Source: an uncultured Gammaproteobacteria bacterium
GTDB lineage: Bacteria; Patescibacteriota; Microgenomatia; UBA1406; HO2-37-13b
DNA: 64,000 bases
Direction: 5' to 3'
Assembly: GCA_964422025.1 (NCBI GenBank)
Contig: CAYQYZ010000002.1
Span: 3,765-67,764, forward strand
Positions 58,459 to 60,312 of the stretch are shown piece after piece (within the stretch, counting starts at the first letter, position 1; every line of letters starts with the position of its first letter). The notes beneath the pieces were generated by a model, which was given only the letters and a program-made list of their open reading frames with translations, was not told where the DNA came from and ran no database searches. Both the position numbers and the translations under genes were made by a program.

Positions 58459-60312
58459 CTAAATAAATCCTTGCACATGTTTTAAAAGTCGTTTTCCACG
58501 TTCAGAAATCTCCTCCCACGTCATTTTCGTATCAGAGGCGAGTCTCTCTTGGTCGGCAAGATCATTTTGCGCTAGAATAAATTCAACTAAAAAACTTCTA
58601 TCATCTCCACTTAAGCCAACATGGTCAAACAACCTTTGAATTCTTAATGAAGCCTCCTCCCTTCTTTCTGTTTCCATAATTTTCGTCTCTGGTTCTGGTG
58701 TTGACGTATCCTTTACAAGTCTATGTAATGTTGCTCCACTTGAAGTGCTTTCGCTATCGAGAGAAATAGGAAATTCGATAGAAACTCTATTAATCATCGC
58801 CCTAATACCTTCTTCTGGAGAAGAATAGGTTGAAACAGCTGTCCATACACTAGCCGACGGCATCCATGGGTATCGTCTTTGTAGTTCTTGCCATTCAATC
58901 AATTTCTTATGAATAAGAGATGGGCTTAGATTAACATTTGCTCTTGCGAACACAAGGACGCTTCCGTCTGAAAGATATGGAAATCCACTTGAGCTAGCTA
59001 CATGAAGAATCTCTTCACAACTCCTAAGGTAATTTTCAACAGCTTCTACGGGGTTTCTAGGATTCTTACGAGCGAAGTGCAATAATGTGCCATCGGGTAA
59101 AAAGCGTGTTCCCATAAATCTGAAGTAAAACTCGCTAATAAAATCCATAGAATGGTATGGCATAAGGCTATCAAGCATTCTTATATCAACACCCTGTGTG
59201 ATTCCTGTTCGAAACTCTTTGGCGACTATGTTGAGTATTTCACCCAGAAGTGCATTATCAACAACAGGTGAGGTATCAACGCCGCCTTGAATGTAAGCGC
59301 GATCAGATCCTTGTAAAAGCCTACTTACAATATCTCTGAATGCAGTACGTAATTCTGACTCACTCTTGGGGGAAGTATGTTCTCCACCGGGCACCTCATT
59401 TACTATGAGTGTACAAGCTTGATGTATGGCGTCAGTATTTTGTTCCAAAAACCCACTGATTCTTTTGGATCTATAACTTCCCAATCCTTTAGGAGACATT
59501 TTAATATGCTCTCTGACATTTGATAGATATCGTGAAGGCTGAGCCCCCTCATCCAATGAGTATCTGAGGATTTGATCAATCTTATCACGTGTGAGAAATG
59601 TATGACCTCTGATTTTATCGAGGAAGCTATATACTTGTGCCCCATCTAGTCGCCAACGATACGTATCGTTGCTTTCTGTTTTGGAGCCCTTTACTTCCAA
59701 AATGAAACCGCCCCCATATCTTTCATGCAAAGCGCGCAGTATGTGATGATCAGTACTGGTCATTCTGAGTACTTGGATTCCCTTTTCTGTAGTAAATCTT
59801 GCTTTTGCATCAATAAAACCTCCAACGAAAGCCTCATTGGAAACTGCATCTGCATAGTCATACGAATCAGCTAATGCGAGCCGATCATTTTTGGAGCTCG
59901 TTTGGGTAGCAATGAAACCAACTCTATCAGATCGGTCGGTCATTGCCTTCCATTCAAGCATTTGCTCAACAAGTGGCTTTCGAGACAGTGCATAAGGTTC
60001 TATAAGACTGGCGACCCACGCAGTAAGTTCAGGCCCGAGCTTAAGTCTACCGCCAGGCGGTGAGTTACGTGGTGATAATGTGCCACCAACACGTTCTTGA
60101 ATTCCCTCCAATCTTTCCAGATCAGTTGAAGAGAATAGTACTATGGGGTATTCATACCTTCTCTCACCCGGATCAACAAAACCCATCCAGCCTTCACCAT
60201 AGGTAAATCCTGCAATCCAGTCGGGGTGTTTGCCCATCCAGTCCATCTGATTCTCAGTGATTCCAAACTCATAAGCACGAAGTTGGTCAGGGCTTAATTT
60301 TTCTATACGCAT
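58459..60312 (-). CDS. LAGLIDADG-type homing-endonuclease-like domain (two motifs, second degenerate) fused to ~350-aa C-terminal region
   Basis: Motif 1 is DWIAGFTYGEGWMGF. Motif 2 is AFVGGFIDAKARF, with Lys at the position of the catalytic acid. The C-terminal half has repeated ..DG(T/S)(L/V)L.FAR.N.. segments and an HTH-like tail. Confidence 0.7.
   Translation of the reverse strand: MRIEKLSPDQLRAYEFGITENQMDWMGKHPDWIAGFTYGEGWMGFVDPGERRYEYPIVLFSSTDLERLEGIQERVGGTLSPRNSPPGGRLKLGPELTAWVASLIEPYALSRKPLVEQMLEWKAMTDRSDRVGFIATQTSSKNDRLALADSYDYADAVSNEAFVGGFIDAKARFTTEKGIQVLRMTSTDHHILRALHERYGGGFILEVKGSKTESNDTYRWRLDGAQVYSFLDKIRGHTFLTRDKIDQILRYSLDEGAQPSRYLSNVREHIKMSPKGLGSYRSKRISGFLEQNTDAIHQACTLIVNEVPGGEHTSPKSESELRTAFRDIVSRLLQGSDRAYIQGGVDTSPVVDNALLGEILNIVAKEFRTGITQGVDIRMLDSLMPYHSMDFISEFYFRFMGTRFLPDGTLLHFARKNPRNPVEAVENYLRSCEEILHVASSSGFPYLSDGSVLVFARANVNLSPSLIHKKLIEWQELQRRYPWMPSASVWTAVSTYSSPEEGIRAMINRVSIEFPISLDSESTSSGATLHRLVKDTSTPEPETKIMETERREEASLRIQRLFDHVGLSGDDRSFLVEFILAQNDLADQERLASDTKMTWEEISERGKRLLKHVQGFI

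Follow-up and report, generated by a model that had tools for sequence, protein, structure and literature searches.

What does a LAGLIDADG protein do for its genome when it is encoded outside any intron or intein and carries a lysine in place of one of its two catalytic acids? The question is raised by a 617-aa open reading frame (ORF) on the reverse strand of a 64-kb stretch of contig CAYQYZ010000002.1 (64,000 nt, hereafter the window), which the relatives of its Rho protein assign to a Candidatus Roizmanbacteria genome of the Microgenomates, within the candidate phyla radiation (CPR). The ORF joins an N-terminal LAGLIDADG domain, through a basic linker, to a C-terminal region that is here termed module X (Table 1). 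The explanation that we favour, with about an even chance of being correct, is that the gene encodes a mobile, selected, LAGLIDADG-derived binding protein that makes no canonical double-strand cut and is fused to a rare repeat module. A first-pass annotation of the window had described it as a domesticated, probably nuclease-impaired scaffold, possibly acting on an adjacent AACGGT repeat array or together with a neighbouring 310-aa orphan.

The N-terminal LAGLIDADG domain

When 1.84 billion representative proteins were searched exhaustively with HMMER, the 617-aa protein obtained 53 matches, and all of these except the query itself and one other protein (P0003) aligned within residues 1-270, being mostly stand-alone proteins of ~225-290 aa. 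A family profile constructed from the query domain and 38 relatives matched I-GzeII, I-OnuI variants, I-AniI, I-SmaMI and other LAGLIDADG enzymes in the PDB, with E-values from 3e-8 to 1e-3, the chains of I-GzeII, I-OnuI and I-AniI falling between 3e-8 and 1e-4. The AlphaFold2 (AF2) model had a predicted local distance difference test (pLDDT) score of >90 for residues 1-255 and a topology that fits LAGLIDADG; a model of the protein made from the single sequence was unusable (pLDDT 39). Foldseek searches with the N-terminal domain retrieved from the PDB only LAGLIDADG endonucleases and the bI3 maturase (best E=4.6e-9, probability 1.0), including I-AniI with a template modelling (TM) score of 0.62, and LAGLIDADG homing endonucleases from BFVD (E=1e-10).

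When the query was searched alone against Pfam, LAGLIDADG_3 was reached below threshold (E=0.14), so that identification of the fold relies on the family profile together with the structure model; eight family members reached LAGLIDADG_1 with weak E-values. The full 617-aa protein had no match in Pfam, NCBIfam or PADLOC, and its sole PHROGs match, at residues 181-249, was phrog_5046, whose name ('HNH endonuclease') is probably a loose annotation of a LAGLIDADG family. Residues 1-255 are a LAGLIDADG fold, and a chance motif can be dismissed. The two LAGLIDADG helices lie where the first-pass annotation had placed them, at D31-F45 (DWIAGFTYGEGWMGF) and A161-F173 (AFVGGFIDAKARF), and the fold it had read from them is borne out by both the profile and the structure searches.

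A degenerate active site shared by the family

Catalysis by LAGLIDADG enzymes involves one acid per motif, and the central metal is often shared (PMC3384342, PMC3017599). In hidden Markov model (HMM) alignments, the catalytic Glu of solved enzymes (..DAEGSF.., ..SGEGSF..) was aligned with E40 in motif 1 and with K170 in motif 2, so that the penultimate position of the first motif holds an acid and that of the second does not. This confirmed the Glu and the Lys that had been noted earlier at these positions, the latter being residue 170.

The same positions are unusual throughout the family. In 49 aligned family sequences the motif-2 catalytic position was occupied by Arg (36/49) or Lys (8/49) and in no case by Asp or Glu (0/49), whilst Gly, Ala or Ser occupied the motif-1 position in 42 of the 49. 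A Glu or Asp two residues before the catalytic position was conserved in both motifs. The motif-1 catalytic Glu was present only in the query, P0002 and P0029, all three of which have Lys-Ala, not Arg-Gly, in motif 2. Outside motif 2, Lys was conserved nowhere in the beta-hairpin regions, as judged by the family sequence alignment only. In Thermotoga maritima WhiA, a non-nuclease LAGLIDADG protein, the catalytic positions are held by Arg and Gly (PMC3384342).

Judged from these residues, canonical double-strand cleavage by the fusion protein is very unlikely, and catalysis has presumably been lost; E40 and K170 may form a charge pair that has been maintained where the two helices meet, replacing the metal site. 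The description of the domain as a nuclease-impaired scaffold therefore holds, in that the canonical chemistry is compromised, with K170 in place of the motif-2 acid; no acid is found there in the 49 family members sampled, and no conserved peripheral Lys was seen in the family alignment.

Family members are free-standing, are unannotated in Pfam and NCBIfam, and often adjoin mobile-element genes, defence genes or a tRNA. One was located between SSB and a TraG/VirD4-like coupling ATPase, and another close to the gene for ribosomal protein L1; neither rRNA nor introns were found near family members in the contexts inspected. No relatives of the N-terminal family were identified in IMG/VR, and tblastn searches against 50,697 phage genomes retrieved no phage relatives. 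Several family members had features of their own. The gene for P0006 (L085, 3974-4750) ends 11 bp from a tRNA-Thr (4761-4833), a typical integration-site neighbourhood. P0007 (492 aa) has the whole two-motif unit tandemly duplicated, P0014, P0046 and P0018 have C-terminal extensions with repeated segments resembling a helix-turn-helix (HTH), P0040 has a possible winged-helix extension and P0034 a 270-aa N-terminal extension; Pfam support for these extensions is weak (HTH_11, Mga, E~0.1).

Module X

The first-pass annotation had also reported a long C-terminal region with repeats (FLPDGTLLHFARKNP / YLSDGSVLVFARANV) and a helix-rich tail, and both proved to be real. The repeats lie in the ~360 residues that follow the fold, within three ~40-aa units (residues 404-520), and the tail is predicted to be a compact helical unit, with confident AF2 helices at residues 569-581, 585-595 and 599-616.

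Among the representative proteins, module X was found only in P0003 (574 aa, Candidatus Woesebacteria, annotated as 'hypothetical protein'; E=9e-40). When 5.8 billion clusters were searched with a profile, the one addition was P0055, the P0003 gene in a near-identical strain, and the module is known in four proteins among these clusters. P0003 and P0055 are without any LAGLIDADG domain, and both are collinear with residues ~317-617 of the query except for a tandemly amplified 40-aa unit (e.g. VTPSVIREIVQRNPQDPRGAIERYIASVTELLAEYKDSDI). Differences between copies of this unit in the Woesebacteria module X were concentrated in the first half of the unit. In the two near-identical strains, P0003 (L003, 10001-11725) and P0055 (L087, 8001-9845) differed by exactly one 40-aa repeat. 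Profile searches of Pfam, PADLOC and the PDB with the whole module and with the tail gave no match, a word-indexed search with the C-terminal half of the protein recovered the two known copies only, and no relatives of the module were present in IMG/VR. Module X is thus an independent, nearly orphan module matching no known family. On a speculative reading of the variation in repeat number and of the differences concentrated in one half of each unit, it could be a modular, evolvable array for the recognition of nucleic acid or protein, coupled in the fusion protein to a site-specific DNA-binding fold.

A tri-helical HTH of the sigma-70 region 4 or LuxR type was considered for the tail and set aside as unsupported, as Pfam and PDB profile searches and hhalign gave nothing significant and the tail is acidic. 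Sigma factors did top the Foldseek results, on the low-confidence single-sequence model and with E-values of at least 0.14, and hhalign comparisons of the tail with RpoD and RpoE returned <1% probability with inconsistent placements.

A single-gene cassette under purifying selection

The sole close homologue of the fusion protein was P0002 (86% at the amino acid level), encoded on a 4.9-kb Joint Genome Institute (JGI) contig, L001. Nucleotide similarity between the two loci (89%) spanned window positions 60340..58459 exactly, that is, from position -28 to the stop codon, and both flanks were unrelated. Two TATAAT boxes overlap within the 28-bp upstream segment, which lacks a Shine-Dalgarno sequence, a layout that implies a very short leader. 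The segment and the ORF together constitute a 1.88-kb single-gene cassette. The GC content of the gene (42.7%), compared with 36-39% for the L001 flanks and 42% for the window genome, is consistent with horizontal transfer. No further copies of the fusion gene were detected in two metagenome scans.

Comparison of the query with the L001 copy gave a ratio of nonsynonymous to synonymous substitution rates (dN/dS) of 0.21 overall (dS 0.33), with 0.19 in the N-terminal domain and 0.14-0.33 across the C-terminal parts. No segment reached a ratio of 0.35, and selection acts on the fusion protein over its whole length. These values bear on the proposal that the gene is the decaying remnant of a homing endonuclease, without present function. 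Such a remnant could well have lost one catalytic acid and be known from two copies only, as is the case here, yet both copies retain an uninterrupted ORF of 617 codons and agree fully in the two LAGLIDADG motifs and in the 28-bp upstream segment, which together with the dN/dS leaves decay a very improbable explanation.

The L001 copy has the setting of a mobile or defence island. It is flanked by a Ppl-like PHP+ATPase defence gene (1-1647, reverse strand; PADLOC E=3e-10) and a Replic_Relax gene (4260-4874, forward strand), and a small CBU_0592 membrane protein is also encoded beside it. The fusion protein might accordingly be imagined as a component of an anti-phage defence, counter-defence or other conflict system carried on variable islands, maybe with neighbours such as the orphan; the two adjoining L001 genes, the hypervariable islet that holds the window copy and the variation of module X repeat copy number between strains would all agree with such a role. 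This role is suggested by gene neighbourhood only, and we regard it as rather improbable, since PADLOC matches neither the protein nor the orphan, no neighbour is common to the two copies, the orphan occurs neither on L001 nor in 1.3 Mb of related loci, and relatives were found neither in phage genomes nor in IMG/VR.

A strain-specific insert between rho and gdh

In the window the cassette lies within an insert between rho (60667-62073), a complete gene that lies upstream and on the strand of the fusion gene, and gdh (55160-56485), which follows the orphan downstream. The rho and gdh genes are ancestrally adjacent, as indicated by four related genomes (L004, L005, L006 and L007). The site is empty in L005, where ~15 nt (~11226-11240) separate the rho stop codon from the gdh -35 box, and L007 is also without an insert. 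The closest relative, L006 (Rho 96% at the amino acid level), has a different 1.8-kb insert at the same point (8445-10249), and L004 has another insert of 1.5 kb at the rho-gdh site (11354-12826). The inserts of the window, L006 and L004 are mutually unrelated; their junctions fall no more than ~10 nt from the rho stop codon and just upstream of the gdh -35 box, so that the short spacer between rho and the gdh promoter is an insertion hot spot.

A presence/absence polymorphism of the 57.3-60.7 kb segment, for which the first-pass annotation had proposed a search of related genomes, is therefore seen, the site being empty in two of these and holding other cargo in the other two. The term 'domesticated', if taken to mean that the gene is fixed in its host, finds no support, because the gene is strain-specific and travels as a single-gene cassette.

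In CPR organisms, LAGLIDADG genes typically occur within rRNA insertion sequences (PMC11270868), and the protein could have been expected to be a homing endonuclease or maturase encoded by an intron or intein in a split host gene or rRNA. This origin is refuted, with next to no probability left to it. Rfam searches detected no family in the whole window at gathering thresholds, nor in the 56.4-60.75 kb region at E<=1, and no tRNA, rRNA, group I/II intron or Hint domain was found in the window. The gene carries a start codon and a promoter-like segment of its own, the flanking rho and orphan ORFs are complete, and the contexts of relatives are also without rRNA and introns. The gene is hence free-standing, as had been claimed, and the location inside an intron or intein of a split host gene that had been named as evidence to the contrary was not found.

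A binding protein or an active endonuclease?

If the gene encodes a mobile binding protein, residues 1-255 would represent the single-chain fold of an unnamed, free-standing subfamily on islets and mobile elements, a subfamily that appears to have abandoned the canonical two-acid metal site. E40 would face K170, the putative charge pair occupying the position of the shared metal, and with the two-acid site lost in this manner the canonical LAGLIDADG double-strand cut would be impossible. The N-terminal domain would most likely serve as a specific binding scaffold, with DNA as its ligand by ancestry; sequence-specific DNA binding is suggested here by the fold only. Module X, composed of a helical head, ~40-aa repeats and the compact helical tail, may add a second recognition or interaction surface. 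The cassette, consisting of the ORF and the segment carrying the -10 box and short leader, would have moved between genomes to its present place in the strain-specific hot-spot insert, and it is maintained by purifying selection. A cellular role as, for example, a regulator or a maintenance factor of mobile DNA would be compatible with this arrangement.

Several observations weigh against the binding protein. AF2 confidence is low across residues 257-540. The isoelectric points (pI) of the LAGLIDADG domain (5.7, compared with a family median of 9.1), of the tail (5.2) and of the whole protein (5.85) are acidic, which is unusual among DNA binders and makes it harder to claim DNA binding with confidence. 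As a motif-1 acid E40 is fully canonical, such that single-strand nicking may still take place through the E40 site. The sharp, gene-sized and patchy distribution of the gene is that expected of an active selfish endonuclease gene, and because only two copies are known, the case for mobility rests on one comparison.

The last of these points lead to a different reading, in which the protein is an active free-standing homing endonuclease, probably an E40 nickase, with module X as an additional DNA-binding domain that extends its target site and the nuclease driving the spread of the cassette. Motif 1 is canonical (AGFxxGEG), as in I-GzeII and I-OnuI; the two sites of monomeric LAGLIDADG enzymes are separate, and nicking is possible in engineered variants (PMC3017599); the cassette runs exactly from promoter to stop codon in both of its unrelated contexts, with a GC content unlike that of the L001 flanks; and purifying selection extends across all parts of the gene. 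The two sites of such enzymes nevertheless share a central metal that is held by both acids (PMC3017599; PMC3384342), and here the partner is Lys. The motif-2 acid is found in none of the 49 aligned relatives, most of which are without both acids, yet the family persists, which is unexpected for selfish genes that depend on a nuclease. No conserved peripheral Lys was seen in the sequence alignment, the domain is acidic, and the two insertion contexts have no recognisable common target sequence. We consider an active endonuclease unlikely, though the main rival, and retain the binding protein as the preferred explanation.

A broader proposal can be attached to the binding protein, namely that the ~250-aa relatives are an undescribed, WhiA-like but independent, non-catalytic family on CPR mobile DNA, to which an evolvable recognition array has been fused in the present protein. 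Taken in full, we rate this proposal as quite improbable.

Neighbouring features of the window

Table 1. Coordinates of the fusion gene, its parts and associated features in the 64-kb window
Feature	Position	Strand	Evidence or remark
Fusion ORF, 617 aa: LAGLIDADG domain, basic linker and module X	58459..60312	-	ORF list; dN/dS 0.21 vs L001 copy
Single-chain, two-motif LAGLIDADG fold, residues 1-255	59548..60312	-	Family profile, AF2, Foldseek
LAGLIDADG motif 1, W32-G41 (WIAGFTYGEG); E40 at the canonical metal-binding position	60190..60219	-	HMM alignment
LAGLIDADG motif 2, F162-A171 (FVGGFIDAKA); K170 instead of the catalytic acid	59800..59829	-	HMM alignment
Linker, residues 256-316, basic (pI 9.4), low AF2 confidence	59365..59547	-	
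Module X, residues 317-617, collinear with stand-alone Woesebacteria proteins P0003 and P0055	58462..59364	-	No Pfam, PDB or PADLOC match
Three degenerate ~40-aa repeat units, residues 404-520	58753..59103	-	
Helical tail, residues 553-617, pLDDT ~90-96, pI 5.2; HTH identity not established	58462..58656	-	AF2
28-bp upstream segment (CCTATAATGTATAATATACGAACATATT), identical in L001; 5' end of the shared cassette	60313..60340	-	
AACGGT/ACCGTT array, 9 exact copies and near-copies in 187 bp	60392..60578	.	
Orphan ORF of 310 aa, within the 4.1-kb insert; matches no family	57287..58219	-	
4.1-kb strain-specific insert (4,122 bp) at the rho-gdh hot spot	56536..60657	.	

The AACGGT array that had been reported upstream of the gene is real, with nine exact hexamers, several of the sites being ~9 bp apart or palindromic. 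It also includes two 16-nt GC palindromes, TCCGCC(A/G)GCTGGCGGA, at 60486-60501 and 60554-60569. The segment that contains the array (60341-60657) has a GC content of 53%, compared with 42% for the window, and lies outside the cassette; its intergenic region folds with z=-4.3, and no Rfam match was obtained for the array. Across the whole window, such hexamers numbered 55, compared with 29 expected by chance, and no comparable AACGGT cluster was found in 1.3 Mb of related genomes.

The suggestion that the protein binds the array is not supported, given that the conserved cassette does not include the array and that the L001 copy has none upstream. As a candidate shared element the array was rejected, since neither L001 nor 1.3 Mb of related loci contains it, and the 14-nt imperfect inverted repeat that flanks it is too weak for it to be called a miniature inverted-repeat transposable element (MITE). 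The array could be an iteron- or operator-like leftover of a mobile element. Matches in IMG/VR to a three-site AACGGT pattern were at roughly chance level (a rough estimate), a few phage contigs excepted. Dense CAACGGTTG arrays were observed in the phage contigs L113 (3438-3617) and L104 (5297-5452), with 8-10 AACGGT/ACCGTT sites per ~155-180 bp, and these adjoin a long T-rich tract. In L113 the array is contained in a replisome-organiser-like gene, upstream of a gene for a DnaC-like loader, and looks like a gene-embedded origin. The position of such phage arrays in a replisome-organiser-like gene suggests that they can serve as iterons; their likeness to the array of the window is one of analogy, with no homology.

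The 310-aa orphan had been put forward as a partner of the fusion protein, and this functional unit is not supported, as the L001 copy is without such a neighbour. As noted above, the orphan had no PADLOC match and was confined to the window insert among the loci compared. A perfect 13-nt inverted repeat (ATATTAAGGATTT / AAATCCTTAATAT) at 58218-58230 and 58370-58382 surrounds the promoter-like region of the orphan, with one arm overlapping its start codon. Further along the insert, an otherwise non-coding 750 bp contains a very basic 39-aa ORF (MCTFLVRYRPDKKRLPEKRKLPKEPFLRLGKTIYIPVRR; 56739-56858, reverse strand), which is preceded at 8 nt by a strong Shine-Dalgarno sequence (GGAGGAGG) and followed by a hairpin. 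Elsewhere in the window, a giant ORF of 2,923 aa (17196-25967, forward strand) lies on a GC-rich stretch (47-50% vs ~41%) with strongly negative GC skew.

Comparison with known systems

Few cases are known in which a LAGLIDADG fold has gone without cleavage and acquired a new role, these being WhiA, the maturases and HO-like domestication. CPR LAGLIDADG genes are so far known mainly from rRNA insertions, and the present locus points to a whole unannotated family with a conserved Arg/Lys at the catalytic position, free-standing on the mobile or variable DNA of CPR organisms. If it is true that this family binds DNA and leaves it uncut, its members would be natural nuclease-dead meganuclease scaffolds, and the question would be raised of why mobile elements keep them.

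WhiA (DUF199), a bacterial transcription factor in which a LAGLIDADG fold is joined to a C-terminal HTH, resembles the query in its single-chain LAGLIDADG fold, in its appended helical C-terminal region and in an unusually acidic LAGLIDADG domain. Its metal-binding acids are replaced, the Arg and Gly of T. maritima WhiA (PMC3384342) being the residue types of the family consensus (Gly in motif 1 and Arg/Lys in motif 2). The query and the 38 relatives, however, have no match to Pfam WhiA_N, LAGLIDADG_WhiA or HTH_WhiA, and among the 60 of 62 PDB profile matches listed there is no WhiA chain, canonical enzymes being found there. Unlike WhiA, the query retains E40, with one acid replaced (K170), its C-terminal module is 300 aa with repeats and not demonstrably HTH, and its gene is strain-specific and mobile, whereas WhiA is a conserved core gene. 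In mechanism and architecture the query is most WhiA-like, yet in sequence it is nearer the canonical LAGLIDADG_1 enzymes.

Those enzymes, of the I-OnuI, I-GzeII and I-AniI type (Pfam LAGLIDADG_1), provided the best profile and structural matches and share the canonical motif 1, and the patchy, cassette-like occurrence of the query gene is like that of free-standing homing endonuclease genes. The query differs from them in having a motif-2 Lys for Asp/Glu, a 360-aa extension and an acidic pI, in the lack of an intron or intein around its gene, and in belonging to a family of which most members have neither acid. Maturases (e.g. bI3) and the bifunctional I-AniI offer a parallel in that cleavage was lost or reduced and a binding role gained (PMC3384342), and PDB 2ab5 was among the fold matches. 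Maturases reside in a host group I intron, on which they also act, whereas the query locus has no intron. The HO endonuclease carries an extra, zinc-finger-like C-terminal DNA-binding domain, and, unlike the query, it is intein-derived, catalytically active and eukaryotic. It has in common with the query that it is a free-standing LAGLIDADG protein (PMC3384342, PMC7282813). Finally, the LAGLIDADG genes of CPR rRNA insertions belong to the same protein superfamily and come from the same phylum-level host group (PMC11270868). They occupy conserved rRNA sites and include a biochemically active enzyme (PMC11270868), whereas the query gene is intergenic and far from rRNA, and encodes a degenerate active site.

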